Of a stretch of 19,886 nucleotides of DNA, positions 1,638 to 19,582 are shown in pieces. Made by a program: the position numbers and the translations under genes. Source of the DNA: Kofleriaceae bacterium (GTDB lineage Bacteria > Myxococcota_A > Polyangia > Haliangiales > Haliangiaceae); NCBI GenBank assembly GCA_046597055.1, contig JBKJLC010000119.1:1-19886 (forward strand), written 5' to 3'. Below the pieces are notes generated by a model. It saw nothing but the letters and a program-made list of their open reading frames with translations. It was not told the origin of the DNA and did no database searches. Position 1 is the stretch's first letter. Each line of letters begins with the position of its first letter.

Positions 1638-1930
1638 ATCGCCTTCTCCTGTCGAGTGAAGCCCCACGGCCGAGCCTGGGACTTGGTGCCCGCCATCTGT
1701 TGCTCATCCTACCTATCGCGCAAGATGGCGTCGGGTTGCGCGGTGCCACCGCGCGGTGCTCGTGGTCGCTTGAACCCGGGGTTGCGCCGCAGACCGGCGC
1801 GGGCGCACATCGCGGATGCCGCCGAGGTCTTCGGGGCCGGGCGACGTGCCCATATGCGTGGCACCGGTGGCCGGCAAGTAACCGGCGTACCTCGGTGGGC
1901 CTGTCAGGCCCGGGTGCTACCAACCGGGGC

Positions 1931-2320
1931 ATGCAGGCGGAGGCTGCGACGGGCTCGGGGTACGGGGAGCTGGTGCTCACGTCGCTGCTGGTGCTGGTGA
2001 TCGTGTGCGCGATGGCGTGGGCCGCCGTGCGGGTCCTGGGTCGGTGGATGGAGGGCCGGCGGGTTGGGGGCGGGGTGGCGGTGGTCGCGCGGGTGCCGCT
2101 CGAGCCGCGGCGCGCGCTGTATGTCATCGAGGCGGGTGGGCGGACGCTGCTGCTGGGGTCGAGCGAGATGGGGGTGACCCTCATCGCCGAGCTCGACGGC
2201 GCGGCGATGGCGGCCGCCGAGGCGGCCCAGCCGAGGCCACGGCCGTTCGGGGCCGCGGTCGGTGATGCGCTGGCCCGCGCGCTGGTGCGGCGCCGGGTGC
2301 CGCCCGAGGACCGCTCGTGA
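1931..2320 (+). CDS. fliO: FliO/FliZ-like export-gate assembly protein
   Basis: Start at ATG 1931, in frame with ORF 1514-2320. One N-terminal TM helix, then VVARVPLEPRRALYVIEAGGRTLLLGSSEMGVTLIAEL, the typical FliO cytoplasmic pattern. Overlaps fliP by 4 nt (GTGA). Confidence 0.8.
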   Translation: MQAEAATGSGYGELVLTSLLVLVIVCAMAWAAVRVLGRWMEGRRVGGGVAVVARVPLEPRRALYVIEAGGRTLLLGSSEMGVTLIAELDGAAMAAAEAAQPRPRPFGAAVGDALARALVRRRVPPEDRS

Positions 2321-2994
2321 CGGTCGAGGGCGCGCTGGCGGTCGCGGCGGTGGCGATCGTGCCGCTGGTCGCGCTGATGCTGTCGGCGTTCGTGAAGATG
2401 TCGGTCGTGCTGGCGCTGGTCCGGAACGCGATCGGGACGCCGGAGGCGCCGCCGGCCCTGGTGGTGACCGGGCTGGCGTTCATCCTGACCGCGTTCGTGA
2501 TGACCCCGGTGGCGCAGCAGGTGGTCGATGCGGTGGCGGTGCCGGCGGCGGGATCCGCGCCGGGCGGAGCTGGGCCCGCGAGGACGGGGCCGGTGGTGCC
2601 GGCGCTGCCCGAGGGTGCGGTGGCATGGGCGGCGGCGGCGGCGCGTGGCGCGGGGCCGGTGCGTGCCTTTCTCGGCAAGCACGCGCACGCCGAGGATCGG
2701 TCGACGTTCCTGGCGCTGGCGCGCGAGCTGCGCGGCGCCGAGGTCGCCGAGGACGACCTGCTGGTGCTGGCCGCGGCGTTCGTCACCAGCGAGCTGACCG
2801 AGGCGTTCGCGATCGCGTTCCTCGTGTTCATCCCGTTCCTGGTGATCGACCTGGTGGTCGGCATCGGGCTCGGCGCGCTCGGGCTGTCGGCGACGCCGCC
2901 CGCGACGGTGGCGCTGCCGCTCAAGCTGCTGCTGTTCGTCGCGGTCGATGGCTGGCGCCTGCTGGTCGGCGGGTTGATCCGGGGCTACCTGTGA
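2317..2994 (+). CDS. fliP: FliP/SctR family export-gate protein (divergent)
   Basis: SAFVKMSVVLALVRNAIG..PP, AFVTSELTEAF, FIPFLVIDLVV, LPLKLLLFVAVDGW; no long N-terminal signal peptide. Confidence 0.93.
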   Translation: MTVEGALAVAAVAIVPLVALMLSAFVKMSVVLALVRNAIGTPEAPPALVVTGLAFILTAFVMTPVAQQVVDAVAVPAAGSAPGGAGPARTGPVVPALPEGAVAWAAAAARGAGPVRAFLGKHAHAEDRSTFLALARELRGAEVAEDDLLVLAAAFVTSELTEAFAIAFLVFIPFLVIDLVVGIGLGALGLSATPPATVALPLKLLLFVAVDGWRLLVGGLIRGYL

Positions 2995-3016
2995 CGGCCC
3001 GACCGCGGCGGCGGCG

Positions 3017-3283
3017 ATGACGGCGGCGCTGGTCGACCTGGCGCGCGAGGGGCTGCTGCTGGCGCTGGCGCTGGCGGCGCCGCTGGTGCTCGCGGCGCTG
3101 GTGGCCGGCGCGGTGACGGCGATCATCGGGGTGGTGACGCAGGTGCGCGATCCGGCGCTGGGCATGGCGCCGCGGGTGGCCGCGGTCGCGCTCGCGCTGG
3201 TGCTGACGGCGCCGATGATCGCGCAGCAGGCGTCCGCCTTTGCGACCCGGGCGCTGACGATGGTCGCCCAGGTCCAGGGGTGA
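3017..3283 (+). CDS. fliQ: FliQ/SctS family export-gate protein
   Basis: 88 aa with two hydrophobic helices; EGLLLAL..AAPLVLAALVAG..VTQVRDPALGMAPRV matches the FliQ pattern; lies between fliP and fliR. Confidence 0.88.
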   Translation: MTAALVDLAREGLLLALALAAPLVLAALVAGAVTAIIGVVTQVRDPALGMAPRVAAVALALVLTAPMIAQQASAFATRALTMVAQVQG

Positions 3284-3284
3284 C

Positions 3285-4028
3285 ATGGACCCGGCCGCGC
3301 TCGGGTTCGACGGCTGGGCGCTCGTGCTGGCGCTGGCGCGGGTCGCGCCGGCGATCCTGATCGCGCCGTCGGCGACCGGGCTGGCGGTGCCCCGGGTGGC
3401 GCTGGGCGCGGTGGCGCTGGCGATCGCCGCGGTGGTCGCGACCGGGCTGGCGGCCGGGGCCGGGGTGCTCGCGGCCGCGGGCTGGCCCGAGCGCCTGCTG
3501 CTGCTCGGGCGCGAGGCGCTGATCGGCGCGGTGCTCGGGGTGGTGGCGGCGGTGCCGCTGGCCGCGGCGGCGACCGCCGGGCGGTGGGCCGCGACCGTGG
3601 CCGACGAGGCGCCTGGGTCGGCGCCGTGGGGCTCGCTGTTCGCGCTGGTCGGCGCGCTGGTGTTCTTCGCGGTCGGCGGGCATCTCGCGCTGGTGGGGGC
3701 GCTGGGGCGGTCGTACCGGGTGCTGCCAGTGGTCGGCGGGGCGGGCGCGGTCGGGGCCGGCGTGGAGCACGTCGTCGCTGCCGGCGCGGGGCTGTTCGTC
3801 ACCGCGCTGGCGATGGCGGCGCCGCTGGTGGTCGCCGCGGTGATCGCGGCCCTGGTCGTCGGTGCGGCCGAGCGGGCGGTGGGCCTGCCCGGCCTCCTGG
3901 TGCCGGAGCTGGCGCTGCGCCGGCTGGTGCTGGTGCTCGCGCTGGCCGCCGCGGTGCTGGCGATCGCGCTGGCGGTGGCCGGTGAGGCCCGAGCGCTGCC
4001 GGCTGCGCTCGAGCGCGCGCTCACCTGA
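3285..4028 (+). CDS. fliR: FliR/SctT family export-gate protein (divergent)
   Basis: 247 aa polytopic protein; LARV..APS, REALIGAVLG, FFAVGGHLALVGALGRSYRVLP, ALAMAAPLVVA; follows fliQ. Confidence 0.85.
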   Translation: MDPAALGFDGWALVLALARVAPAILIAPSATGLAVPRVALGAVALAIAAVVATGLAAGAGVLAAAGWPERLLLLGREALIGAVLGVVAAVPLAAAATAGRWAATVADEAPGSAPWGSLFALVGALVFFAVGGHLALVGALGRSYRVLPVVGGAGAVGAGVEHVVAAGAGLFVTALAMAAPLVVAAVIAALVVGAAERAVGLPGLLVPELALRRLVLVLALAAAVLAIALAVAGEARALPAALERALT

Positions 4029-4144
4029 CGGCCGGGCGCTGGCGCACCCGGGCGGGCCCAGGCACGCCTGCCGGCCGAGGTTGCTCACCTGACTGCCGGC
4101 GGCGCAGGCGCGCCCGGCCGGGCCCAGGCACGCCTGCCGAGGTT
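4019..4144. repeat. Imperfect ~64-bp tandem duplication between convergent fliR and flhB
   Basis: Unit 1 (4019-4082) and unit 2 (4083-4144) both read GCTCACCTGAC...GGGCCCAGGCACGCCTGCCG...AGGTT; unit 1 contains the fliR stop codon. Confidence 0.85.
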
Positions 4145-4157
4145 GGCTCGGATTGCG

Positions 4158-5159
4158 CTATGCCGCGCGCGCCGTGACCGGCGGTGCCAGGCCGAGCGCT
4201 GCCAGCACCGCGACCACCCGGGGTTGATGGGCGGCCGCGACCGGCCCGGCCGGGAGGGCGGCCAGGTCCTCGTCGGCGAAGATCGGGACGCCGCGATGGC
4301 GGGCGGCGGCGACCAGGGCATGCGCGGCCAGCCCGGCCGCGGTGGCGACCACGTCGGGCGCGAGCACGCCGGTGCGCCAGCGGATCGCGGCTGCCGACCG
4401 GGCGCCGACCAGGACCATGGTGGCGAGCGCGACCCGGTCGCGCGGGTCGGGGCCGTGGGCGCGACGCTGACGCTGGCGCATGCCGGGGTCCCCGGCGGAC
4501 TCGCGCCGCTCGTCGCGCGCCTCGCGGTCGGTCATCCGTAGCGCGGTGGCCAGGCGGCGGTGGCGAACGACCACGTCGAGCGCCGCGAGCGCGACCGCGG
4601 CGGCCGCGAGGTGGGCGAGGGCGGCGATCGCGAACGCGCCGGCGGCGTGCGCGATCGCGGTCGGCGCGGCGGCGGCGAGCCGCGTGAGCCCGACCAGGTG
4701 GCCGAGCACGAAGCTGGCGCCGACCGCGAGCAGGATCGCGGCGCGGACGACCGCGAGCACGGCGTCGGTGGCGGCCCCGCCCAGGCCAGCGGGCGCGGCC
4801 GGCGCACCGCGCACGTCCCGGCGCGGGACGAACAGTCCGCGGGCGAGGGCGGCGCCGGCGACCAGGCCGCCGACCGCGGCGGCGATGACGATCGGCGCCA
4901 CGATCGCGCCGAGGTCGACCAGCACCCCGCTCACATCGAACGCCCGGGCGCGCGCGGCCGCGCCTGGCTCGGCCGCGGTCGCGAGGGTGGTCCGGGCGAG
5001 GCTCAGCAGCAGGCGCGCGCCCGTCACCAGCGCTGCGGCGGTGGCTGCGACCGCGGCCGCCAGCGCGACGGCAGCGGTCCACGCCGGGCTCTCCAGGACC
5101 AAGCCGGCCTTGCGGGCCAGCGCGACCCGGCGCGCCGAGGGCGGAAGGCGACGGTCCAC
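4158..5159 (-). CDS. flhB: FlhB/SctU family protein lacking the NPTH autocleavage motif
   Basis: C-terminal 333 aa of ORF 4158-6020. Motifs: RRLPPSARRVALARKAG (cf. KTExPTxKKLxxARxKG), TM helices, LRMTDREARDERRESAGDP (cf. LKMTKQEVKDExKxxEGDP), APDVVA, AARHRGVPIFAD. GTG 5159 chosen as start because a TAGCGT box lies 7 nt upstream; CTG 5189 is an alternative. Confidence 0.85.
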   Translation of the reverse strand: MDRRLPPSARRVALARKAGLVLESPAWTAAVALAAAVAATAAALVTGARLLLSLARTTLATAAEPGAAARARAFDVSGVLVDLGAIVAPIVIAAAVGGLVAGAALARGLFVPRRDVRGAPAAPAGLGGAATDAVLAVVRAAILLAVGASFVLGHLVGLTRLAAAAPTAIAHAAGAFAIAALAHLAAAAVALAALDVVVRHRRLATALRMTDREARDERRESAGDPGMRQRQRRAHGPDPRDRVALATMVLVGARSAAAIRWRTGVLAPDVVATAAGLAAHALVAAARHRGVPIFADEDLAALPAGPVAAAHQPRVVAVLAALGLAPPVTARAA

Positions 5160-5166
5160 AGCGGCG

Positions 5167-5175
5167 ACGCTATCA
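5167..5175 (-). promoter_or_regulatory. Putative extended -10 box for leaderless flhB
   Basis: Minus strand TGA-TAGCGT, 7 nt, GTG(5159); no Shine-Dalgarno. Confidence 0.5.
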
Positions 5176-5230
5176 TCACGTTGCGACAGTGGCTTGCGTG
5201 GGGCGGTTCGCGGTCCCGCATGACCCGGGC

Positions 5231-5236
5231 TAGAGT
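5231..5236 (+). promoter_or_regulatory. Putative -10 box for leaderless galU
   Basis: TAGAGT, 7 nt, ATG(5244); no Shine-Dalgarno. Confidence 0.5.
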
Positions 5237-5243
5237 GCGGCGC

Positions 5244-6131
5244 ATGCCCGCCACGGTTCGCAAGGCTGTCATCCCCGCCGCGGGGCTCGGTACCCGCTTT
5301 CTGCCCGCCACCAAGGCGATCCCGAAAGAGATGCTGCCGATCGTCGACATCCCGACGATCCAGCTGGTGATCGACGAGGCGGCGCGCGCTGGCATCCGTG
5401 ACGTCGTCGTGGTCAACGGCCGCGGCAAGTCGGCGATCGAGGACCACTTCGATCACGCCTACGAGCTCGAGCACACGCTGCGCGAGCGCGGCAAGACCGC
5501 CGATGCCGACGCGCTGGTCGCGATCTCGAAGCTGGTCCGCATCATCTCGGTCCGCCAGCAGCAGCCGCTTGGCCTCGGTCACGCGGTGCTGTGCGCCCGC
5601 CACGTGGTCGGCGACGAGCCGTTCGCGGTGCTGCTCGGCGACGACCTGGTCGACGACGACGAGCGTCCGGGTATCGGACAGCTTTGCGACGCCCACGCGG
5701 CCACCGGCGCCGGCGCGATCGCGGTCATGGAGGTCGCGGCCGGGCAGGAGCACCTCTACGGCATCGTCGCTGGTGACTGGGTCGGCGACGGCGGGTCGCG
5801 GCGGATGCGGATCCGCGACATGATCGAGAAGCCGAAAGCCGGCACCGCGCCCAGCCGGTTCGCGATCATCGGCCGCTACGTGCTGCCGCCGTCGGTGTGG
5901 GCGATCCTCGAGGCGACCCCGCCCGGGCATGGCGGCGAGATCCAGTTGACCGACGCGCTGCGCCAGCTCGCCGCGTCGAGCGACGGCCTGTACGGGGTGG
6001 TGCTGTCGGGCGTGCGTCACGACGCCGGCGACAAGGTCGGCTACCTCCGCGCGAACCTCGCCTACGCGCTCAAGCGGCCCGCGCTGCGCGAGCCGGTGCT
6101 GGCGATGATGCGCGAGCTGCTCGCCACCTGA
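5244..6131 (+). CDS. galU: UTP--glucose-1-phosphate uridylyltransferase
   Basis: KAVIPAAGLGTRFLPATKAIPKEMLP, IEDHFD, QQPLGLGHAV, LLGDD, IEKP, GEIQLTDAL; start ATG 5244. Confidence 0.97.
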   Translation: MPATVRKAVIPAAGLGTRFLPATKAIPKEMLPIVDIPTIQLVIDEAARAGIRDVVVVNGRGKSAIEDHFDHAYELEHTLRERGKTADADALVAISKLVRIISVRQQQPLGLGHAVLCARHVVGDEPFAVLLGDDLVDDDERPGIGQLCDAHAATGAGAIAVMEVAAGQEHLYGIVAGDWVGDGGSRRMRIRDMIEKPKAGTAPSRFAIIGRYVLPPSVWAILEATPPGHGGEIQLTDALRQLAASSDGLYGVVLSGVRHDAGDKVGYLRANLAYALKRPALREPVLAMMRELLAT

Positions 6132-6133
6132 GC

Positions 6134-8566
6134 ATGGCCGCTGAGGTCTACTGCGAGGTCGCGGTCGCCCTCCCGGTGACCCAGATCTACACGTACGCGG
6201 TGCCGGCGGCGCTGGCCGCGCGGATCGTGCCGGGTGCCCGCGTGCTGGTGCCGTTCCGCGGCCGCGGCCTCGCCGGCATCGTCGTGCGCGCGCCGGCGCC
6301 GGCGCCGGGGGGCGACGTGAAGATCCTGCTGGTCAAGGACGTCACCGCCGACCCGGTCGCGCCCGAGCTGGTCGGGCTCGCGCTGTGGATCGCCGAGTAC
6401 TACGAGGCGCCGCCCGGCGAGGCGCTGCGCCTGGTGGTCCCGGTCGGCACCGACACCTCGAGCGCGATGATCGTCACGCTCACCGCGCGCGGCCGGGCCA
6501 CTCTCGACGGCGACGAGGCGCCAGCGCTGCCGCCGCGGCAGCAGCGCCTGCTGGCGCGGCTCGGCATGGCCGACGGTCCGGTGGCGCGGACCGAGCTCAC
6601 CCGCTGGAAGGACGACCTCGACGGGCTGTGCGCCGCGGGCCTGGCCGAGATCGCCGACGAGCGCGCCGCGCCGCGCAACCGGCTCGCGCGTGAGCGCGTG
6701 GCGAGCGTGGCCCCCGGCTTCGACCTGGCCACCGCCCAGACGCTGCTCGCGCGCGCGCCGAAGCGCCGCGCGGTGCTCGACCGGCTGCGGGCGGCCGGCG
6801 GCCCGGTCGCGGTCACGGTGCTGGCCGAGCAAGTGCCGGGCGCAGCCGCGGCGCTGCGCGAGCTGGTCGCCGCCGGCCTCGCGGTGGTCGAAGAGCGCGA
6901 GGTCGCGCTGTCGGCGCTCGAGGCGGGCGCCGAGCTGCCGGCGCAGCCGCCGATCCCGACCCTGACCGCCGAGCAAGCGGTCGCGGTCGGCGCGATCAAC
7001 GGCGCCGCCGGCAGCGGCTTCGCCGCGTTTCTGCTCCACGGCGTCACCGGCTCGGGCAAGACCGAGGTCTACCTGCGGGTGATCGCGCAGGCGCTCGACC
7101 GTGGCCAGGGCGCGATCGTGCTGGTGCCCGAGATCAGCCTGACCCCGCAGCTGGCCGCCCGCTTCCGCGGCCGCTTTGGCGACCAGGTCGCGGTCCTGCA
7201 CTCGGGCATGAGCGATCGCGACCGGCTCGGCGAGTGGCAGCGCCTGCACGACGGCCGCGCTCGCATCGCGCTGGGCGCGCGCTCGGCGGTGTTCGCGCCG
7301 GTCGCCGAGCTCGGCGTGATCGTCGTCGACGAGGAGCACGACGGCTCGTTCAAGCAGGACGAGGGCGTGCGCTACCACGGCCGGGACGTCGCGCTGGTGC
7401 GCGCGCAGCGAGCCAAGGCCGTGTGCGTGCTCGGCTCGGCGACGCCGAGCCTCGAGTCGTTCGCGGCCGCGGTGGCCGGGCGCTACCGCCTGCTGTCGAT
7501 GCCGACCCGTGCGACCGGCGCGCCGATGCCGACGGTGCAGATCGTCGATCTGCGCATCTGGATGCCCGACGCCGACGCGATGCTCTCGGCGCCGCTGGCC
7601 GCCGCGCTCGAGGAGACCGTCGCCGCCGGCGACCAGGCGATCCTCTTTCTCAACCGGCGCGGCTTCGCGACGTTCGTCGTGTGCCGCGCGTGCGGGCACG
7701 CGTTTCGCTGCCGCGACTGCGCGGTCTCGCTGACCTATCACCAGGCCGCCGATCGCCTGGTCTGCCACTACTGCGCCTTCACCGCGAAGGTCCCGGAGAC
7801 CTGCCCGGCATGCAAGAAGGTCGGCGCGATCGAGCGCAAGGGGCTCGGCACCGAGAAGGTCGCGCAGGCGATCGCGGCCCGGTTCCCGACCGCGCGGGTG
7901 GCACGGCTCGACCGCGACGTCGCCAGCGGGGCCGGGGCCGAGGCGGTGCTGGCGCGGGTGGCGCGCCGCGAGGTCGACATCCTGGTCGGCACCCAGATGG
8001 TCACCAAGGGCCACGACTTCCCGGGGGTCACCCTGGTCGGCGTGCTGTGTGCGGACCTCGCGCTGTCGCTGCCGGACTTCCGGGCCGCCGAGCGGACCTT
8101 CCAGCTGCTGACCCAGGTCGCCGGTCGCGCCGGCCGCGGCGCGCGCGCTGGCCGGGTGCTGATCCAGACCTACAAGCCCGAGGTCGACGCGGTCGCGTGC
8201 GCGGCCCGCCACGACTACCTGGCGTTCTTCGCCGCCGAGGACGAGGCCCGCGCCGACCTGGCGTACCCGCCGCATGGCCGGATGTGCGCCATCCGGATCG
8301 ACGGCGAGGACGACGCGGCGGTGGCGCGCGCGGCCGAGCACCTGGGCGCGCTCGCGGTCGCGCTGGCGCGCAAGGAGGGGGACACCGTGATCGTCCGAGG
8401 ACCGGCGCCGGCCCCGCTGGCGCGGCTGCGCGGGCGGACGCGCTGGCAGATCTGGCTGCGCGCGGCCGACCGGGTGCCGCTGCGGCGGGTTGTCCGTGGC
8501 CTGCTCGCCGCCGAGATCCGCGGCGCACGGGTGGCCGCGGACGTGGATCCGTTGGCCACGTTGTAA
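6134..8566 (+). CDS. priA: Primosomal protein N' (replication restart helicase)
   Basis: LHGVTGSGKTEVY, LVPEISLTPQ, DEEH, SATPSLES, LNRRG, four CxxC pairs, GTQMVTKGHDFP, QVAGRAGR, DVDP; start ATG 6134. Confidence 0.97.
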   Translation: MAAEVYCEVAVALPVTQIYTYAVPAALAARIVPGARVLVPFRGRGLAGIVVRAPAPAPGGDVKILLVKDVTADPVAPELVGLALWIAEYYEAPPGEALRLVVPVGTDTSSAMIVTLTARGRATLDGDEAPALPPRQQRLLARLGMADGPVARTELTRWKDDLDGLCAAGLAEIADERAAPRNRLARERVASVAPGFDLATAQTLLARAPKRRAVLDRLRAAGGPVAVTVLAEQVPGAAAALRELVAAGLAVVEEREVALSALEAGAELPAQPPIPTLTAEQAVAVGAINGAAGSGFAAFLLHGVTGSGKTEVYLRVIAQALDRGQGAIVLVPEISLTPQLAARFRGRFGDQVAVLHSGMSDRDRLGEWQRLHDGRARIALGARSAVFAPVAELGVIVVDEEHDGSFKQDEGVRYHGRDVALVRAQRAKAVCVLGSATPSLESFAAAVAGRYRLLSMPTRATGAPMPTVQIVDLRIWMPDADAMLSAPLAAALEETVAAGDQAILFLNRRGFATFVVCRACGHAFRCRDCAVSLTYHQAADRLVCHYCAFTAKVPETCPACKKVGAIERKGLGTEKVAQAIAARFPTARVARLDRDVASGAGAEAVLARVARREVDILVGTQMVTKGHDFPGVTLVGVLCADLALSLPDFRAAERTFQLLTQVAGRAGRGARAGRVLIQTYKPEVDAVACAARHDYLAFFAAEDEARADLAYPPHGRMCAIRIDGEDDAAVARAAEHLGALAVALARKEGDTVIVRGPAPAPLARLRGRTRWQIWLRAADRVPLRRVVRGLLAAEIRGARVAADVDPLATL

Positions 8567-8605: not shown

Positions 8606-11600
8606 GTGCCTCCGCCCGCCCCGATCAAGATTCTCGTGGTCGCTGACCCCGGCGAGCAGCGCTCGCTGGTGGCGGCGCTGCGCCTCGGCGGCGAGCCGCT
8701 CGACGAGGCCGTGATCGTTCTCGGGGTCGGCGACGACGCGACGCTCGGTCAGTTCCTGGCGCTTCGGCCGACCGTGGTCCTGATCCGTTCGACGCTGGAG
8801 GACGGCGACGCGCGCGCGTTGATCGGCGCGATGCGTGAGTCGGCGCGCCAGGCGGGGCGCGGTCTGTTCGTCGTGCTGCTCGGGGACGATGTCCACGGGC
8901 CGGTGCGGAACGCGCTCGATGCGATCGACTTCGGGGTCGATCGATTCGTCGGCCGGCCGCTGGCGCCGAAGGCGCTGCGCTTTGCCGTGATGAGCGGGCT
9001 CGTGAGCGATGCGGCGAAGGCGGACACGGCGGCGCGGGGCGCGGTGGCGGTGGTGCCGGCAGCGCCGGCGGGGTCGGCGGCGCCGGTCGCACGGGCGGCG
9101 GTGGCGCAGGTGGCGCTGGTGGCGCGGGCGTCGGTGGCGGGCAAGGCGAACGGGGTGTCGGCGGCGGCGGTACCTGCGGCGGTGCCAGCGGCCGCGACGA
9201 CGGGCGCGACGCCGGGTGACGTTGGTGCAGGGCAGGTACGGTCGGTGGCGCCGGATGTCGAGGCGGCGGAGGAGTGGGCGAAGGCGGAGGAGTGGGCGAA
9301 GGCGGAGGGTGGGGCGGCTGCGGTGCCGGTGCCGGTGCCGGTGCCGGTGATGATGGGGGGGCCGGAAGCGCCGGTGGATGGGTCGGAGACGACCCCGATG
9401 CGGGTCGTGGATGGGCCGGTGAGCCCGGTGTCGGCGCGGTGGGCGCGGTGGGCGGCGCTGGCGGATGCGATCGAGACCGGAGCGGGTGACGACGCGAACG
9501 TGGACGTCACTGGCGGGGGCGGGACGGAGCGGGCGTCGGAGACGGAGCACGCGTCGGAGCCGGCGAGCGAGCAGGCGCAGGAGCGGGAGAGCGAGCAGGA
9601 GCGGGAGAGCGAGCGGGAGCGGGAGCGGGAGCGGGAGAGCGCGTCGGAGCAGGAGCGCGATCCGGCGCGGGAGCGCGAGCAGGAGCGGGAGAGCGCATCG
9701 GAGCAAGAGCGAAAGAATGCGTCGGAGCCGGAGCGCGCGTCGGAGCCGGAGCGCGCGCACGAGATGGCGGCAGAGGGCGCGCCGGTGATCGAGCGCGCAG
9801 CCGGGCCCGCCAGTACGCCGGGACGCGCGAGCGATCCGGAGATGGAGGCGGCGGCGGAGCGCCCGGTCGAGATCGAGCGCATGCCGGCGAGGCCGCCGGT
9901 GACGGAGACGGCGAGCGAGCGGGCGATGGCCAGCGCGCGGGCGCTGGTGAGCGCGCGGGCGTTGGCGGATCGGAACGACGATGAGTTCGACCCGGCCGAC
10001 GAGTGGGATCCCGACGACGACGATGACGACTGGGAGCGGCCGGCCGTGCCGGTGTCGGTGGCGGAAGAGGTCGACCTGACCGATCAGGAGATCGACGACC
10101 GGTCGGTCGACGGTCCGTTCGTCGTGACCCAGACGCCGCCGCCACCGTCGGGCTGGCGGCCCGGTTCGACCGAGGTGCCGCTGCCGATGCGGGAGCCGAC
10201 GCTGGTGCTGTCCGATCCGGCGGAGGGGGCGGCGCCGGCCAAGGTCGAGCTCACCGAGCGCGCGCATGGTGGCGCGGCGGCCTGGGGTGCGCGGTCGCAC
10301 GTGCCCGCGGCCGACTACGACGAGGACATGCTCGCCGACGTCGGCGCCGGGGTCGACGAGGACCTGTCGGTCGACATCACGCGCGAGCCGGCGCCGAGCG
10401 CCGCCACGGAGGCCAGCGCGCCGCCGGTCGGGGGCGACTTTGCGCGCGAGCTCCGCCGCAAGATGTCGCTGATGGCCGAGCGGCTGTTCCGCGGCGAGGT
10501 GCCGGGGCCGGTCGCGATCGGGCCCGGTCACGATCATCACACCGAGATCGATCTCGGTGGGCTGGTCGACGAGCCGCGGATCTCCGATGGCTACGACGGC
10601 GGCGGGGTCACGTTCGTCGGCAGCGGCAGCGGCGATCTCGCGTCGCGCACCCAGACCAGCGAGACCCGCGGCACCACCGAGTCGGGCGAGATCCAGCGCG
10701 GCGTGTCCGACGCGGCCGCGCTGATCGCCCGCATGTTCACCGCCGACTTCACCGGGCGCATCATCTTCCGCCGCGGTCCTACCGAGAAGGTGATCCACTT
10801 CGAGGGCGGCCGCCCGGTCTTCGCGTCGTCGAGCCTGAGCCACGACCGCATGGGCGAGTTGCTGCGGCGCGAGGGCAAGATCACGGCCGAGCAGCACGCG
10901 CGGTGTCGCGATCTGGTGCGCGACACCGGCCGCCGCATGGGCGAGATCCTGGTCGAGCGCGGCTTCATGAAGCGGCGCGAGCTCTTGCCCGCGGTCCGGC
11001 GCCACGTCGAGGACGTCATCTACTCGTTGTTCGCGTGGGAGCAGGGCGACTACCGGATCATCGCGGGCGACGGCGCCGTCGGCGAGCGCATCCGGTTGTC
11101 GCGCCACCCGGCCGCGATGGTGCTCGAGGGCGTGCGCCGCAAGCTCGACCTCGCCGTGCTCGAGCGCCTGCTGGGTCCGCCCGGCACCATCGTCGAGACC
11201 ACCGACCGCGACAAGCTGGCGGCGATCACCGGCGTCGCCGACCTGTCGAGCGAGGAGCGCGCGGCGCTGGCCGCGCTCGATGGTTCGACCGATCTGGCCG
11301 CGGTCGCGCGTCACAGCGGCGCCGGCCTGACCAACGTCTACCAGCTGGCGTGGAGTCTCCACCTGCTCGGGCTGGCGACCACCCGCCGCCGCCCCGGCGA
11401 GGACGACGGCGAGGCGCCCGCGCTGGTCGGCGAGTCCGACCTGGCGATCGATCGCGACCGAGTCCGGGCCCGCTATCAGCTGGTGAGCGACGCCGACTAC
11501 TTCGCGCTGCTCGGCGTGCGCCGCGACGCGACCGGATTCGAGATCAAGCGCGCCTACGAGTCGGCGCGGCGCGACTTCGCGGCCGAGACGTTCCCGTCCG

Positions 11601-11737
11601 AGCTGCGCAAGGAGCTGCACGCCGAGCTCGAGGAGATCGCCTTGGTCCTCGACGAGGGCTACCGGGTCCTGCGCGACGACCTCCTGCGCGGCAACTATCT
11701 CCTGCACCTGCGCGACTTCATCGAGGACGCGTCGTGA
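8606..11737 (+). CDS. Multidomain protein: pseudo-receiver, long low-complexity linker, DUF4388-like domain, C-terminal J-like domain
   Basis: N-terminal receiver fold (IKILVVAD...PTVVLIR...GVDRFVGRP); FTGRIIFRRGPTEKVIHFEGGRPVFASS...RMGELL...RMGEILV...LFAWEQGDY (DUF4388-like); DYFALLGVRRDATGFEIKRAY (J-domain helices). Confidence 0.8.
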   Translation: MPPPAPIKILVVADPGEQRSLVAALRLGGEPLDEAVIVLGVGDDATLGQFLALRPTVVLIRSTLEDGDARALIGAMRESARQAGRGLFVVLLGDDVHGPVRNALDAIDFGVDRFVGRPLAPKALRFAVMSGLVSDAAKADTAARGAVAVVPAAPAGSAAPVARAAVAQVALVARASVAGKANGVSAAAVPAAVPAAATTGATPGDVGAGQVRSVAPDVEAAEEWAKAEEWAKAEGGAAAVPVPVPVPVMMGGPEAPVDGSETTPMRVVDGPVSPVSARWARWAALADAIETGAGDDANVDVTGGGGTERASETEHASEPASEQAQERESEQERESERERERERESASEQERDPAREREQERESASEQERKNASEPERASEPERAHEMAAEGAPVIERAAGPASTPGRASDPEMEAAAERPVEIERMPARPPVTETASERAMASARALVSARALADRNDDEFDPADEWDPDDDDDDWERPAVPVSVAEEVDLTDQEIDDRSVDGPFVVTQTPPPPSGWRPGSTEVPLPMREPTLVLSDPAEGAAPAKVELTERAHGGAAAWGARSHVPAADYDEDMLADVGAGVDEDLSVDITREPAPSAATEASAPPVGGDFARELRRKMSLMAERLFRGEVPGPVAIGPGHDHHTEIDLGGLVDEPRISDGYDGGGVTFVGSGSGDLASRTQTSETRGTTESGEIQRGVSDAAALIARMFTADFTGRIIFRRGPTEKVIHFEGGRPVFASSSLSHDRMGELLRREGKITAEQHARCRDLVRDTGRRMGEILVERGFMKRRELLPAVRRHVEDVIYSLFAWEQGDYRIIAGDGAVGERIRLSRHPAAMVLEGVRRKLDLAVLERLLGPPGTIVETTDRDKLAAITGVADLSSEERAALAALDGSTDLAAVARHSGAGLTNVYQLAWSLHLLGLATTRRRPGEDDGEAPALVGESDLAIDRDRVRARYQLVSDADYFALLGVRRDATGFEIKRAYESARRDFAAETFPSELRKELHAELEEIALVLDEGYRVLRDDLLRGNYLLHLRDFIEDAS
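9265..9349 (+). repeat. In-frame coding tandem repeats: 18 bp x2.4 (AEEWAK) and 6 bp x4.8 (VP)
   Basis: GGCGGAGGAGTGGGCGAA at 9265 and 9283, partial at 9301; CGGTGC array at 9321-9349. Confidence 0.85.
9525..9765 (+). repeat. Coding Glu/Arg/Ser-rich microsatellite-like tract (ERESEQERERE, ASEPER)
   Basis: Repeated GAGCGG/GAGAGC/GAGCAG hexamers and two copies of GCGTCGGAGCCGGAGCGC. Confidence 0.8.
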
Positions 11738-14839: not shown

Positions 14840-16234
14840 TCACCCCGGACGAAACTGTTCGAGATCGAGACCCAGGCGGCGCAGCCAGCGGTGGATCTGC
14901 ATCCGACCCTTGCCCATCACCCTGGCCGTTGCGCTGACGTTGCCGGCGTGCTCCGTGAGCGCTGCGATTAGCTGTTCTCGAAGCCGGTGATCTTCGATGG
15001 ACAGCTCGGCGATGGTGGTGGCATCGCCCGGAGCCTCGACCCGAACGGTCGGGGGGAGGTGGGACGCGTCGATGGGGCCGCCCTGGGCCAGCGCCACCGC
15101 GGCCTCGAGCGCCATCGACAGCTCGCGAATGTTGAGCGGCCAGTGATGCCCGAGCAGCCGCCGTGCGGCGCTGGCCGTGATGGTCAAGTCTCGCGGCGCA
15201 CCCAACCGCTCGAGGATCGCGTTGATCAAGAGGCCGGTGTCGACCAACCGTTCGGACAGCGGCGGAAGCTCGAGTACGTAGCCGGCGAGCCGCGCCCACA
15301 GATCGCGGCGGAAGGTGCCCTTCTCGACGTGTGCCGGGAGGATCTGGTGGGTCGCGGCCACCACCCGTACATCGACCGGCACCGGCCGGGTGCCGCCCAC
15401 CGGTACCACCTCGCTCTCCTGGAGCACCCGCAACAGCGCGGTCTGGGCCGGCGCCGGAAGTTCGGCGATCTCGTCCAGAAACAACGTGCCGTCGTCGGCG
15501 GAACGCACGTATCCGGCGCCATCGTCGACGGCGCCGGTGTAGGCCCCCTTACGCCAGCCAAAGAGCTGCGCCTCGACGAGCGCGGCCGGCAATGCGCCGC
15601 AGTTCACCGCCACGAACGCGCCCGCGCGCGTCGCCAGCTCGTGAATGGCGCGTGCCGTGACCTCCTTGCCGGTGCCGGTATCACCTTGGATCACCACCGG
15701 CACACGCGCCGCTGCAATGATGGCAAGCGCGGCAAAGGCGCGCGCCAGCTCACCGGAGAAGGTTGCCAGCCCACGCGCCGGCGGCGCCAGCGACGAGGCG
15801 AGCAGGTCGGGCGCGCCGGGCACGGCGGTATCCGCGTCACGGAACAAGATAAACGTCTGACCCAGCTCGATGAGATCGCCGTCCCGGAGTGGCGCGCGCC
15901 GGACGACCGTTCCATTCACCCGGGTCCCATTCTTGGAGCCGGCATCATCGAGGATCCAGCGGCCTCGAAGCTGTGTGAGGCGCGCGTGCTCGGACGAGAG
16001 GGCCCGATCGGGCAACCGAAGCTCGAGCCGCCGAAGCCCGCCGGCGCTGCGCCGCCGGGCGTCGCGCTCTCCACGGCCGATGGTGACCAGGTCCGTATTG
16101 GCAACGACGTGACGCGAGGACGTTCCGCGCAGGTGCCCGGCCGCGATCAGCACGAAGAGCTGAGCTGCTTCGCCCGCTTCTCCCTCCCGCTCCGCGACGT
16201 CGGCCAGGGACATGGTCACGGTCGTCGACGCCAC
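14840..16234 (-). CDS. FHA-domain sigma54-dependent enhancer-binding protein (FHA-AAA+-HTH)
   Basis: FHA motifs TIGR, SSEHA, SKNGT; Walker A GDTGTGKE; GAYTGA; LFLDEI; LLRVLQE; WPLNIREL; C-terminal GNVSATAR HTH. GTG 16234 chosen as start from the TGC-TACGCT box 6 nt upstream; ATG 16213 is an alternative. Confidence 0.93.
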   Translation of the reverse strand: MASTTVTMSLADVAEREGEAGEAAQLFVLIAAGHLRGTSSRHVVANTDLVTIGRGERDARRRSAGGLRRLELRLPDRALSSEHARLTQLRGRWILDDAGSKNGTRVNGTVVRRAPLRDGDLIELGQTFILFRDADTAVPGAPDLLASSLAPPARGLATFSGELARAFAALAIIAAARVPVVIQGDTGTGKEVTARAIHELATRAGAFVAVNCGALPAALVEAQLFGWRKGAYTGAVDDGAGYVRSADDGTLFLDEIAELPAPAQTALLRVLQESEVVPVGGTRPVPVDVRVVAATHQILPAHVEKGTFRRDLWARLAGYVLELPPLSERLVDTGLLINAILERLGAPRDLTITASAARRLLGHHWPLNIRELSMALEAAVALAQGGPIDASHLPPTVRVEAPGDATTIAELSIEDHRLREQLIAALTEHAGNVSATARVMGKGRMQIHRWLRRLGLDLEQFRPG

Positions 16235-16240
16235 GGGGCC

Positions 16241-16249
16241 AGCGTAGCA
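16241..16249 (-). promoter_or_regulatory. Putative extended -10 box for the leaderless activator gene
   Basis: Minus strand TGC-TACGCT, 6 nt, GTG(16234). Confidence 0.5.
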
Positions 16250-16275
16250 GAGGCTCACGCGCGGTCAGGCTGGCC

Positions 16276-16319
16276 TGTAACACCGACCGTCACGCGGGCG
16301 GCAGGCGCAGGCCGTTACA
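16276..16319. promoter_or_regulatory. Candidate upstream activator (enhancer) half-sites
   Basis: TGTAAC (16276-16281) and its inverse GTTACA (16314-16319), with a related GTCAC between them, 60-105 bp upstream of the -24 box. Confidence 0.35.
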
Positions 16320-16379
16320 CTGCGTGGGCAGCGTGGCACGGACTGGCAATAATTCTGGCGGGTTCCACCCCGCGCCGAA

Positions 16380-16395
16380 CGGCACGTTCCCTGCT
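16380..16395 (+). promoter_or_regulatory. Sigma54 -24/-12 promoter facing the kinase genes
   Basis: CGGCACGTTCCCTGCT: GG(16381-82)-N10-GC(16393-94), close to the TGGCACG-N4-TTGCW consensus. Confidence 0.65.
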
Positions 16396-16561
16396 GAAGC
16401 ACCTGCTCGTGTTGGCGTTCGTTCCCACCGCTGCAGGCCGTGCAGGATCCGTTGCCCCGGTCGGGCGGCCGCCGGTTCAGATCGGTAGCGACGAACCCAC
16501 CCGGACCCGAACCCGAGTCAGCGAGGACACCGACGCGTCGGCGCCGCGCGCCGCGGGATCC

Positions 16562-17623
16562 ATGCCCAGTTGCGCTCGGCCCCGTCCCGGTCTTCTGCCC
16601 GCTCCGCTGCAGTACCGGGATCCGGCCCGCTATCACATCGTCTCCGAGCATGGTCGAGGCGGGGTCGGACGCGTCTACCGGGCCCGGGATAACGAGCTCG
16701 GTCGTGACGTCGCCCTGAAGGAGCTGCTTCATCGAGGCGCCTCCAGCGAGTTGCGGTTTCTGCGAGAGGCGGTCATCACCGCCCACCTCGATCATCCCGG
16801 TATTGTCCCGATCTACGACGCCGGGCGATGGCTCGACGGCACTCCGTTCTACACGATGAAGCTCATCACGGGCCGCCTTCTCAAGGAGCTCATCCAGGAG
16901 TGCACTTCGATCGACCAGCGCCTTGCCCTGGTTCCTCATGTCATCGCCGTCGCGGACGCGATCGCCTACGCCCACGCTCGCAAGATCATTCACCGGGACA
17001 TCAAGCCGTCCAACGTCATGGTCGGCGAGCTCGGGGAGACCATCGTGATCGACTGGGGTCTTTCCAAGGTCATCGCCGACGTTTCCGACGGAATCGGCAG
17101 CGTGGTTGGCTCCGGGAGCTCGCCGGCTCCAGCCGGTGACGGCGTGACGATCGTCGGCACCGTGCTGGGCACCCCCGCGTTCATGGCGCCCGAGCAAGCT
17201 CGCGGCGAACCCGTGGATGAGCGGGCCGACGTATACGCGATCGGTGCGATGCTCGAGTGCATCTTCTCGGGCGAGGCGCTGTCAGGTGGGGCGGGGCAGG
17301 CCAGTCCGCAAGCGAAGTCATCCGCTCCGCCGGGGCTGGCGGCCATCATCGCGCGGGCGATGGCGCCCGAGCGCGCATGTCGGTACCGCAACGCGTCGGC
17401 GCTGGCCGCGGCGCTCCGGGCATTCGCGACCGGGCCACGGACGGCCGCTCGTCCGTCACGCCTCGCAGTCGGAACGTGGATGCGATGGACACGCACGATG
17501 GCGACGGCGATGGCGGCGGCGCTAGCCCTGTCGATCGCTCTGGCCGCGTGTGGAGCACGAGAAATTCCGGCCGAGAGACGCGCCGACCAGGCCAACCACG
17601 CGGTCGGTTCCGACCCGCGGTGA
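16562..17623 (+). CDS. Hanks-type Ser/Thr protein kinase with C-terminal hydrophobic helix
   Basis: GRGGVGRVY, VALKE, HRDIKPSN, DWG, GTPAFMAPE, DVYAIG; start uncertain (ATG 16562 or in-frame TTG 16412). Confidence 0.9.
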   Translation: MPSCARPRPGLLPAPLQYRDPARYHIVSEHGRGGVGRVYRARDNELGRDVALKELLHRGASSELRFLREAVITAHLDHPGIVPIYDAGRWLDGTPFYTMKLITGRLLKELIQECTSIDQRLALVPHVIAVADAIAYAHARKIIHRDIKPSNVMVGELGETIVIDWGLSKVIADVSDGIGSVVGSGSSPAPAGDGVTIVGTVLGTPAFMAPEQARGEPVDERADVYAIGAMLECIFSGEALSGGAGQASPQAKSSAPPGLAAIIARAMAPERACRYRNASALAAALRAFATGPRTAARPSRLAVGTWMRWTRTMATAMAAALALSIALAACGAREIPAERRADQANHAVGSDPR

Positions 17624-19582
17624 GTGCCTGATACAGTCGGGGGAAGTGACCCCGAGGTTTCTCAGTTGACCCAGCCCCCGCGGGCCGCCAGCATTCCGCC
17701 CGTCGAGCGGGTCGGAAGCTACATCCTGCTCCGCCGGATCGGGTCCGGTGGAATGGCGGAGGTCTGGCTGGGCCGGCACGTCGTCTCGGGCGGCAGCGCA
17801 GCGGTCAAGCGGCTCGCCCCGGATGCGCGGGACCGGCCGAGCATCGTCGAGTTCCTCGCCAGCGAAGCGCGGGTGATCGCACGCCTGTCCCATCCCCACA
17901 TCGTGCCGCTGTTCGAGTACGGCGACGGGTTCGTGGTGATGCCCTACATCGAAGGCGTGACCCTCTCGCGACGGATGCAACGTCCGGTCGACGCCGCGAC
18001 CGCCATCCGCATCGTGCGTCAGGTCGCCTCCGCCCTCGCTCATGCCCACGAGCGCGGTGTCATTCACCGCGACGTCAAACCGTCGAACATCCTGCTCGAC
18101 CGCAACGAGACGGCCTACCTGTCCGACTTCGGCATCGCGGCTTCGCCGGATGGCCCCGGCCATGCGGCGGGCACGCCACGCTACATGGCGCCCGAGCAGG
18201 GCCGCGGTGAGCCGGTAGGGCCGTCGGCCGATCAATACGGACTCGCGCGAACCTTGCTCGAAGTGCTGGGCGGCGGTCACCTGCCAGGTTTGCCCGACGA
18301 GGCGTGCGCGGCCCTGCCGGCGACGCTGCCCCCCGCGCTCCGGGCGGCGCTCGAGCGCGGTCTGGCCGCCCAGCCCGCGGAGCGGTTTCCGAGCATCGCT
18401 GCGTTCGCCGATGCGCTGGCCGCGATCGACCTTCAAGGCTTCGCGCCGTCGGTTCGACTGGCTCGAGCCCAGCGCGAAGTTGCTCCGAATCCATGGCTCA
18501 CTGGCTCGCTGAGCCAGCATGCACTGGGCCCCGATATCGTCTGCGCGGAATACCGTCTGCGTGATCTCGTCGCTCGCGGGTTCCTCCGGCAGGAGGTCAT
18601 CGACCCCGCGCTTGGTCGGCTCGGTCTCGCCGACATCGGGTTTTCCGTTTACACGGCGACCGCCCGACTCGGCGCGCTCACTGATCCCGCGCTGCTGTCA
18701 CGGGTCACGGAAGTGATCGTGCTCGTCCATGGATGGACGTGCACGCGCTTTGCGTGGCGCACCATCGCGCCCTCGCTCTGTCGGGACAACCCGCTCGCGC
18801 TCGTGGTCGTGCCCGACCTCCACGGGGCCGGTGAGACTCGGTGGGTCGGCACACCTACCCGAGCGCAAGCGTCGCTGCGATCGATGGCCGACTCGGTGCT
18901 TGTGCTGGCTCGCTTGCTTGGCATCGACGCGATACCGACCGTGCTGCTCGCCCACTCGATGGGGGCCATGAGCCTGCTCACGGTCGACGACGCGGATCTG
19001 CCAGACAACGTGGCGCGAGTCCTGCTTAATCCCGTCTTCCCGTCGAAGCTGCCAGCCGTCCGCCGGGCTTTTCTCGCAGCAGCGCTGGTCGTCAGCACCC
19101 TGGGTCGGTTCGAGTGGATGAGACGTGTGCTGGTGGCGTGGGTACTCCGCGATCCGAACCTGCGTGGGCTCGCTCCGGTGGATCGCGCCGCGCTGTCTGC
19201 GAACCTGCAAGCCTGTTGGCCGGGCGCCACGGAGCGGGTCCTGATCGCGCTGGCAACCGCTCCCTTTCGTGCTGGCCGCCAGCGGCGGGTTACGCTGATC
19301 TCCGGCGTCGACGACCCGTTGATGCGGGACGAGGACGTGCTGCGGGCGGCGGCGGCGCAACTCGGGCTCGATCCCGCCCACGTGCACCGGATAGCATCGG
19401 GCGGCCACAGTCCGCATCTTTCGCTGGTCATGCATCCCGAATGGGCGGCACGCAACATCGATGAGATCGCGCGCATCGTGCAGTCGATGATCCTCACCGC
19501 GCACGAACCGACCACGACGCCGACCCTCAAACCGGCCGCTGGCGAGACCATGACCTACCGCAGCGAAAGTGGCGACGGCTGA
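17624..19582 (+). CDS. Ser/Thr protein kinase fused to an alpha/beta-hydrolase domain
   Basis: Kinase motifs GSGGMAEV, AVK, HRDVKPSN, DFG, GTPRYMAPE, DQYG. Hydrolase motifs VLVHGW, PDLHGAG, AHSMG, SGVDDP, GGHSPH. Confidence 0.88.
   Translation: MPDTVGGSDPEVSQLTQPPRAASIPPVERVGSYILLRRIGSGGMAEVWLGRHVVSGGSAAVKRLAPDARDRPSIVEFLASEARVIARLSHPHIVPLFEYGDGFVVMPYIEGVTLSRRMQRPVDAATAIRIVRQVASALAHAHERGVIHRDVKPSNILLDRNETAYLSDFGIAASPDGPGHAAGTPRYMAPEQGRGEPVGPSADQYGLARTLLEVLGGGHLPGLPDEACAALPATLPPALRAALERGLAAQPAERFPSIAAFADALAAIDLQGFAPSVRLARAQREVAPNPWLTGSLSQHALGPDIVCAEYRLRDLVARGFLRQEVIDPALGRLGLADIGFSVYTATARLGALTDPALLSRVTEVIVLVHGWTCTRFAWRTIAPSLCRDNPLALVVVPDLHGAGETRWVGTPTRAQASLRSMADSVLVLARLLGIDAIPTVLLAHSMGAMSLLTVDDADLPDNVARVLLNPVFPSKLPAVRRAFLAAALVVSTLGRFEWMRRVLVAWVLRDPNLRGLAPVDRAALSANLQACWPGATERVLIALATAPFRAGRQRRVTLISGVDDPLMRDEDVLRAAAAQLGLDPAHVHRIASGGHSPHLSLVMHPEWAARNIDEIARIVQSMILTAHEPTTTPTLKPAAGETMTYRSESGDG

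Follow-up and report, generated by a model that had tools for sequence, protein, structure and literature searches.

A type III export gate without its usual seals, and its putative partner genes at four other loci of a Kofleriaceae genome

What would a type III export gate do where no other type III gene surrounds it? The question is raised by the window studied here, the whole of a 19,886-nucleotide contig of a Kofleriaceae bacterium (GCA_046597055.1, contig JBKJLC010000119.1; C199 below), which carries fliO-, fliP-, fliQ-, fliR- and flhB-type genes and was described in an earlier note, made from the letters alone, as holding a stand-alone gate module. We searched its own genome (G000; 8.4 Mb in 303 contigs, G+C 72%, completeness 94%, contamination 7.6%) together with 60 relatives, 61 genomes in all. 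By family, profile and tree evidence, the five genes very probably encode the inner-membrane gate (SctRSTU with a FliO-type factor) that belongs to a second type III set, a non-flagellar one. Five gate genes lie in the window:

1931-2320, + strand: fliO-like, 129 amino acids, of the myxobacterial type III secretion system (T3SS) type; Pfam FliO, E 1.2e-11
2317-2994, + strand: sctR/fliP, 225 amino acids; Pfam FliP, E 1.8e-53; aligned to solved FliP
3017-3283, + strand: sctS/fliQ, 88 amino acids; Pfam Bac_export_3, E 2e-14
3285-4028, + strand: sctT/fliR, 247 amino acids; Pfam Bac_export_1, E 1.1e-20
4158-5159, - strand: sctU/flhB, 333 amino acids, inverted in the source family; Pfam Bac_export_2, E 2.6e-28

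All five frames are open, at the positions first read from the letters, and all five proteins score above the Pfam cut-offs (E 1e-11 to 2e-53). The fliO and fliP genes overlap by 4 bases and a single base separates the fliQ stop from the fliR start; coordinates and Pfam thus bear out the open frames and the tight coupling of fliO/P and fliQ/R reported in the earlier note. The FliO-like protein is likely the gate assembly factor. Among subfamily models, SctR scores highest with the non-flagellar one (188 bits, cut-off 179); the other gate proteins fall far below every subfamily-model cut-off, FliQ and FliR with the flagellar models slightly ahead. No type III gene other than these five was found in the window. 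The earlier statement that there are no other flagellar or injectisome genes therefore holds within the window and fails genome-wide: family searches of G000 returned two FlhA/SctV, two FliP, two export ATPases, three FliN/SctQ matches, FliF and a shortened SctJ. Part of these appear to form, with the window gate, a non-flagellar type III set spread over five loci. The four loci outside the window are:

C157:88263-90092: SctV; hrcV model 563 bits versus 480 for FlhA
C156:32327-33775: SctN; SctN model 532 versus 501 for FliI
C193:35805-36863: SctQ, from the family search of G000
C193:91426-91971: SctJ, shortened, 181 amino acids, lipoprotein-like; own profile E 5.8e-14

The SctV, SctN and SctQ genes stand alone among housekeeping neighbours. 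The Pfam search missed the shortened SctJ, returning no second ring protein, and it was found with our own profile, built from the SctJ of 20 relatives. It lacks the first ring domain, is full length in other families, and has a neighbourhood matching those in G028 and G035. It does not lie directly upstream of the ATPase locus, which is preceded by an acyl-CoA ligase gene. On C156 a 277-amino-acid FliG/SctK-like gene (K-like below) comes ahead of the ATPase gene, at the same position as the FliG-like gene before sctL in the long Myxococcaceae locus described below. The K-like protein model is confident (predicted local distance difference test, pLDDT, 91.8), but neither Foldseek nor sequence comparison matched it significantly to a solved structure; chained profile scores to the long-locus FliG-like gene and FliG are 61-70%, and Atlas leads are FliG (0.89) and YscK (0.80). 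SctN has intact Walker A, GERGRE, Walker B and arginine finger motifs, and its short N-terminal extension resembles SctL (profile probability 65%), so that SctL would be a stub fused to SctN; in other families SctL is a separate gene. The membrane domain of SctV aligns closely with solved SctV, and its cytoplasmic part accounts for a length some 70-80 residues below that of long-locus SctV. A FliA-like sigma gene on C286, of the type preceding sctJ in class relatives, is a candidate member only. Because the partners SctV, SctN, SctQ and SctJ lie elsewhere and the window holds their only gate genes, this is not a gate without an engine, and we rejected the stand-alone reading.

Could the window gate then be a spare or alternative gate of a flagellum? 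The genome has a flagellar set, in which names beyond the gate were assigned by reading sequences and gene order:

C73:28860-48249, C123:3-8075 and C203:3144-7682 (L013, L014, L015): flagellar set with gate, rings, rod, hook, flagellin and stator

The presence of this set, and the slightly higher scores of FliQ and FliR on flagellar models (far below cut-off), are what such a reading can draw on. The flagellar operon, however, has its own fliO-P-Q-R-flhB-flhA, and the trees exclude the window gate from the flagellar one. The gate also occurs where FliF gave no match, and four family genomes with flagellar genes lack it. On these grounds we rejected a spare flagellar gate, to which we give hardly any credence. 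The earlier note had named, as contrary to its reading, a full set elsewhere for which these are the only gate genes; this was found in part, for the scattered partners, whereas the flagellar set has a separate gate. Of the 16 other genomes of the genus, 11 have FliF, and the flagellar FliP makes up a clade at family level. Contamination is not favoured as a source of the two sets, both of which are genus-level clades; the nine contigs carrying them have a G+C of 0.716-0.740.

The ancestry of the scattered set was addressed with trees, including the FliP/SctR phylogeny that the earlier note had proposed; SctV sequences below 450 residues (4 rows) and the SctN of L152 were omitted. Window SctR and the C157 SctV fall outside the flagellar clade (support 100), and an approximately unbiased (AU) test rejects joining the scattered SctV with flagellar SctV (p 0.015). 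SctV groups with myxobacterial non-flagellar systems, apart from flagella and proteobacterial injectisomes (92/82). These results show, as far as gene sequences go, a non-flagellar ancestry for the scattered set. The hint in the earlier note at myxobacterial needle-less clusters proved right.

Named Myxococcaceae loci fall into two types. The order of the long locus is sigma, I, J, FliG-like, L, N, O, FliK-like, Q, FliO, R, S, T, U, V, and that of the short locus Q, FliO, R, S, T, U, V. From gene content and from the gene count against mxan_2438-2451, we infer that the long locus is the system called T3SS* in Myxococcus xanthus: in L318-type loci sctQ is the eighth gene counted from sctI, fitting mxan_2438 to mxan_2445, and sctQ is given as MXAN_2445 (PMC12075869, PMC10196010). 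The scattered system is likely a counterpart of this needle-less T3SS*, with which Myxococcus lyses prey, and orthology of the two seems fairly probable. The scattered SctN is sister to long-locus SctN (98/97), and under fast models SctV groups with the long locus (support 97 and 91). An Asn-Pro-Asp/Glu-His motif occurs in 6/6 long-locus SctU and in 5/8 scattered SctU of other families, a count that omits L067 and L340 (wrong frame), and NPTH stands instead in 2/2 short-locus and 7/7 flagellar sequences. Profile comparison matches class-relative SctI, SctJ and SctL to the long locus (98.6-100%), and both the class relatives and the long locus have a FliA-like sigma gene ahead of sctJ. The ATPases of three Myxococcaceae-type genomes that carry a short locus are long-locus and flagellar only. 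The long-locus FliO profile matches window FliO (E 2.9e-21) and does not match the flagellar FliO of G000, which, with the published occurrence of FliO in both M. xanthus T3SSs (PMC12403147), overturns the earlier view of FliO as a mark of flagellar origin. In sphingomonad injectisome loci (L330, L332, L347 and related ones) the FliO profile also scores near sctR, as reported in PMC12403147. L312 and L315 are T3SS*-like clusters of lower G+C, in which the interval from sctI to the FliG-like gene shows no sctJ; their ATPase takes a separate branch.

The same machine may instead be equally related to both Myxococcus loci, or be of the short T3SS(2) type. We regard this as doubtful while giving it some weight, an estimate that concerns long-versus-short ancestry and is independent of those for the other alternatives. 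The trees of the gate and of SctV leave the choice open: SctV placement is undecided under the mixture model and its AU test does not reject the short placement (p 0.072); the R+S+T+U tree, with long branches, joins the window branch to the short-type locus L329 (support 94, biased composition), and its AU tests reject neither long nor short (p 0.26, 0.21). The presence of FliO in both Myxococcus loci also speaks for it, and one short-type genome, G211, has a single ATPase, on another contig and outside the tree sampling. The SctN tree, the SctU motif, the fast SctV trees and the matches of class-relative SctI, SctJ, SctL and sigma genes to the long locus stand against it.

Is the scattered set maintained? 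Among 16 other genus genomes, SctV was found in 16, SctN in 14, SctQ in 13, SctJ in 13 (several weak), the K-like gene in 12 and window-type SctR in 11. Three of the five genus genomes without the gate have priA no more than 2.7 kb from a contig start, fitting contig breaks; one is also without priA and one is undecided. Conservation of the scattered set extends over genus, family and class and includes genomes without the flagellar ring gene: in G002, G005 and G012 the gate, SctV, SctN, the K-like gene and SctQ are present, FliP is single and FliF gave no match. The synteny comparison suggested in the earlier note places priA beside the gate in 18 of 26 fetched window-type loci of relatives. 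In several other families the gate follows the rpoA-rplQ operon with flhB in line, whereas flhB is inverted in the source family; the other loci of the set also retain their neighbours, and among named loci the nearest carry the labels Haliangiales and Kofleriaceae. In other Myxococcota families (L301-L308, L346, L352) the gate is further broken up, either with fliO-sctR alone at its locus or with highly diverged copies from which the gasket is lost as well.

The gate itself departs from canonical members in several places. The gasket loop of window FliP reads Leu-Ser-Ala where Salmonella FliP has Met-Met-Met, and none of 18 source-family rows has a Met-x-Met gasket. The FliR plug segment counts 16 residues versus about 26 in canonical members; it is about 10 residues short in 8/8 genus rows and kept in three other family rows. 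The FlhB Asn-Pro autocleavage site is absent in 15/15 in-frame family-level rows (the window and 14 others). The SctS/FliQ salt-bridge pair is Asp/Arg instead of Glu/Lys in all 8 genus rows, the Asp sitting at the site of the E46D suppressor, which in Salmonella improves the function of small-residue gasket mutants (PMC8239009). According to the same work, gasket and plug seal the gate and mutants of either leak ions, the leak of gasket mutants being tied to active secretion; Asn-Pro cleavage is reported to be required for substrate switching (PMC7064499). SctT and SctU are very rich in alanine (0.30-0.31 versus 0.15 in flagellar FlhB). The cytoplasmic switch domain of SctU is predicted intact (pLDDT 90.7), with YscU/EscU C-terminal domains as best matches; its alignment holds canonical FlhB, so the model fold is partly borrowed. 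We rejected assembly error as the cause of the lost motifs, because relatives have lost them too and public contigs are free of indels: soil contigs from one study cover 1884-3748 and 3682-6200 with zero indels, and may be the window's own source.

Such losses invite the reading that the system is a relic under relaxed selection, an ancestral predation system that lost its Tad partner and whose gate no longer works. Gasket, plug, switch, the first SctJ ring domain and most of SctL are gone, SctT and SctU are Ala-rich, branches are long, and the system was not found in many family genomes; in the close pair G006-G016 the ratio of nonsynonymous to synonymous substitution (dN/dS) of the gate is about twice that of priA. 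Yet the genes at five unlinked loci are open together across the genus at 44-88% identity, catalytic motifs are intact and the Asp/Arg pair is fixed in the genus. A dN/dS near 1 together with frameshifts, named in the earlier note as the sign of decay, is not supported for the one informative pair, G006-G016, which by the method of Nei and Gojobori (NG86) gives 0.03-0.20 (FliO 0.03, R 0.14, S 0.07, T 0.16, U 0.15, V 0.06, N 0.07, K 0.20, with 0.07 for priA). We consider a relic unlikely.

If the machine works, where would its substrates go? Neither an SctI rod nor an SctO stalk matched anything in G000, no chaperone partner was found there, and the FliK-like and second FlhB-C genes of the long locus were likewise not found in this genome. 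SctI lies beside sctJ in 4/20 class loci, and YscO-like proteins exceed the cut-off in 4/61 genomes, none in the family. The 65 FHA and 62 TPR matches in G000 include none assignable to SctD or LcrH-type chaperones. None of 17 genus genomes has an SctC-type secretin above the TIGR02516 cut-off, the matches being to generic secretins only; the search for the needle SctF gave no match in G000, nor in any control genome. The Tad/Kil marker RcpC/CpaB was found in 0/17 genus genomes, against 26/61 genomes overall, and the Tad secretin N-domain was found in 0/3 genomes versus 2/2 Myxococcaceae-type controls. T3SS* is reported to be recruited by the Kil pilus in M. xanthus (PMC12075869); in the source genus, prey lysis through a Kil pilus is unlikely.

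Our favoured reading, held with moderate confidence, is that the scattered genes build one inner-membrane machine exporting proteins to the periplasm, with no export hierarchy and with a re-tuned seal. SctRSTU would sit inside a SctV ring, and SctN would feed it via SctQ and the FliG/SctK-like protein, with SctN and SctV powering the slow movement of one substrate class. Export would cross the inner membrane only and substrates would end in the periplasm, given that the searches turned up neither a secretin specific to the system nor a Tad pilus, rod or stalk gene. Slow transport of a single substrate class would make the switch and the high-speed seal dispensable, and the SctS Asp/Arg pair may compensate for the lost gasket. 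The export job would likely be a simple one, and its role may lie in predation, envelope upkeep or contact.

A different proposal is that the gate no longer threads proteins and has become a small-molecule or ion channel, or a scaffold (for example in nanotube-like contacts), while keeping its coupling to SctV and the ATPase. In its fullest form it holds that the SctS Asp/Arg pair re-tuned the gate into a channel or scaffold that is unsealed, coupled to the ATPase and SctV and not serving protein injection, a natural minimal type III machine long retained by a soil myxobacterial lineage without a Tad pilus; in either form it strikes us as improbable. The retained ATPase, SctQ and K-like genes would be needless for a bare channel. 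The nanotube reading of the flagellar CORE genes is disputed, which also counts against it. For it speak the loss of both seals, whose mutants leak ions in Salmonella (PMC8239009), the failure to find rod, stalk or chaperone partner, and a report of flagellar CORE genes as a nanotube platform in which Myxococci are listed as CORE-only candidates (PMC6456723). The tie of the gasket leak to active secretion (PMC8239009) argues the other way, and no hat-like structure was seen in M. xanthus in the account given in PMC9380563. That gasket, plug and switch are lost lends a measure of support to the suggestion of the earlier note that this is a repurposed, non-canonical channel.

Some observations weigh against the periplasmic export machine that we favour. 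Nine of 20 family genomes outside the genus have no FliP match, so that the system is dispensable at family scale, and 4 more of the 20 carry flagellar FliP copies only. Frames are split in some relatives (SctN of G005; SctR of G019, G023 and G035); as priA is also split in G023, some of these are likely assembly errors. The dN/dS values come from one pair that does not include G000; pairs with G000 are saturated under NG86 (priA 0.42-0.54; gate 0.36-1.08), as are all beyond the closest pair, and YN00 failed for most pairs. The assignment of the K-like protein to FliG/SctK, by position and low scores, is weak. SctS Arg accompanies gasket loss in 25/26 versus 1/33 rows, which contain only 3 independent pairs and give no significance.

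The DNA around the gate genes holds the following:

1-1562, + strand: ISL3 element (flank, outside the system), transposase 318-1559; Pfam DDE_Tnp_ISL3; inverted repeats 1-25/1538-1562
1563-1637, - strand: 5' end of a lipoprotein gene cut by the insertion sequence (flank); the translation reaches a lipobox-like stretch at the edge of the element
4019-4139, no strand: repeat pair, two 64-66 base copies between the converging fliR and flhB ends
5244-8566, + strand: galU and priA (conserved context, outside the system); Pfam

The ISL3 element has an 8-bp target duplication and interrupts the lipoprotein gene, and the gate does lie between this disrupted gene and galU, as first described. The first 117 bases of the element are common to contig C267, which bears rpoA-rplQ, and in relatives the stretch from rplQ to fliO holds a variable lipoprotein island. 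The 64-66 base repeat has no copy elsewhere in G000, and one public contig has a single copy. Directly after priA, a gene at 8606-11737, conserved in family and order relatives, encodes a 1043-amino-acid protein with DUF4388, a long low-complexity middle and a weak DnaJ-like end. At 14840-19582, in slightly lower G+C, an FHA-sigma54 activator faces two Ser/Thr kinases, one fused to an alpha/beta hydrolase.

These findings extend the myxobacterial needle-less lineage, a proposed flagellum-injectisome intermediate, to a scattered Polyangia form that cluster-based detection and the SctJ model of Pfam miss. Its separation from the Kil pilus suggests a second job for the lineage. It also offers a natural test of gate mechanics, in which three control elements regarded as near-universal are lost together and a laboratory suppressor residue is fixed, and its genes could serve to probe what such a gate requires for sealing and for export.

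How does the scattered set compare with known systems? T3SS* of M. xanthus (mxan_2434-2464; PMC10433427, PMC12075869) shares with it SctRSTUV, SctN, SctQ and SctJ, FliO before sctR (in locus L318 of Myxococcus sp. 1LA and relatives), the lack of an SctC-type secretin and a sister ATPase. It occupies one locus, whereas the scattered set occupies five, has a shortened SctJ and an SctL stub, gave no match for SctI, SctO and FliK-like genes, is without gasket, plug, autocleavage site and Tad/Kil marker, and coexists with a flagellar set. According to a review of 2025, the co-occurrence of Kil and T3SS* is confined to Cystobacterineae (PMC12428579). The Myxo non-flagellar T3SS of Abby and Rocha (2012) is alike in SctRSTUV, SctN, the inner ring SctJ (shortened here) and the lack of an SctC secretin, but forms one ordered Cystobacterineae locus. 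The short locus T3SS(2) (mxan_5643-5654; PMC10196010, PMC3459982), reported there as not needed for killing, is likewise reduced and needle-less, with a weak FliO, SctQ and SctRSTUV; unlike the scattered set, it keeps NPTH, is one compact cluster and has no ATPase of its own (three genomes). The flagellar FliOPQR-FlhB gate (PMC7064499, PMC8239009) has the same families, gene order and predicted folds, but the window gate lies outside its clade and the flagellar gate of G000 keeps Met-Val-Met, plug and NPTH. Bradymonad-like loci (L290-L296, L331) also have a stand-alone fliO-R-S-T-U cluster, in which NPTH and Met-His-Met are kept. Needle-less type III genes have been recorded by annotation in Bradymonadia and Polyangia, with sctR and sctV homologues in Polyangia genomes (PMC11509652); the passages on them give no locus map or tree and do not mention lost seals. 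We found no description of a scattered Polyangia system with lost seals in a literature search of main texts, and the supplements may list its genes (Dataset S2 of PMC12403147, Table S5 of PMC11821767 and Table S4 of PMC11509652 lay outside the search). Needle-less myxobacterial T3SSs, FliO within them and Polyangia sctR/sctV are already in print (PMC3459982, PMC12403147, PMC11509652); new, as far as that search goes, are the scattered five-locus layout and the joint loss of gasket, plug and autocleavage motif in the source lineage.

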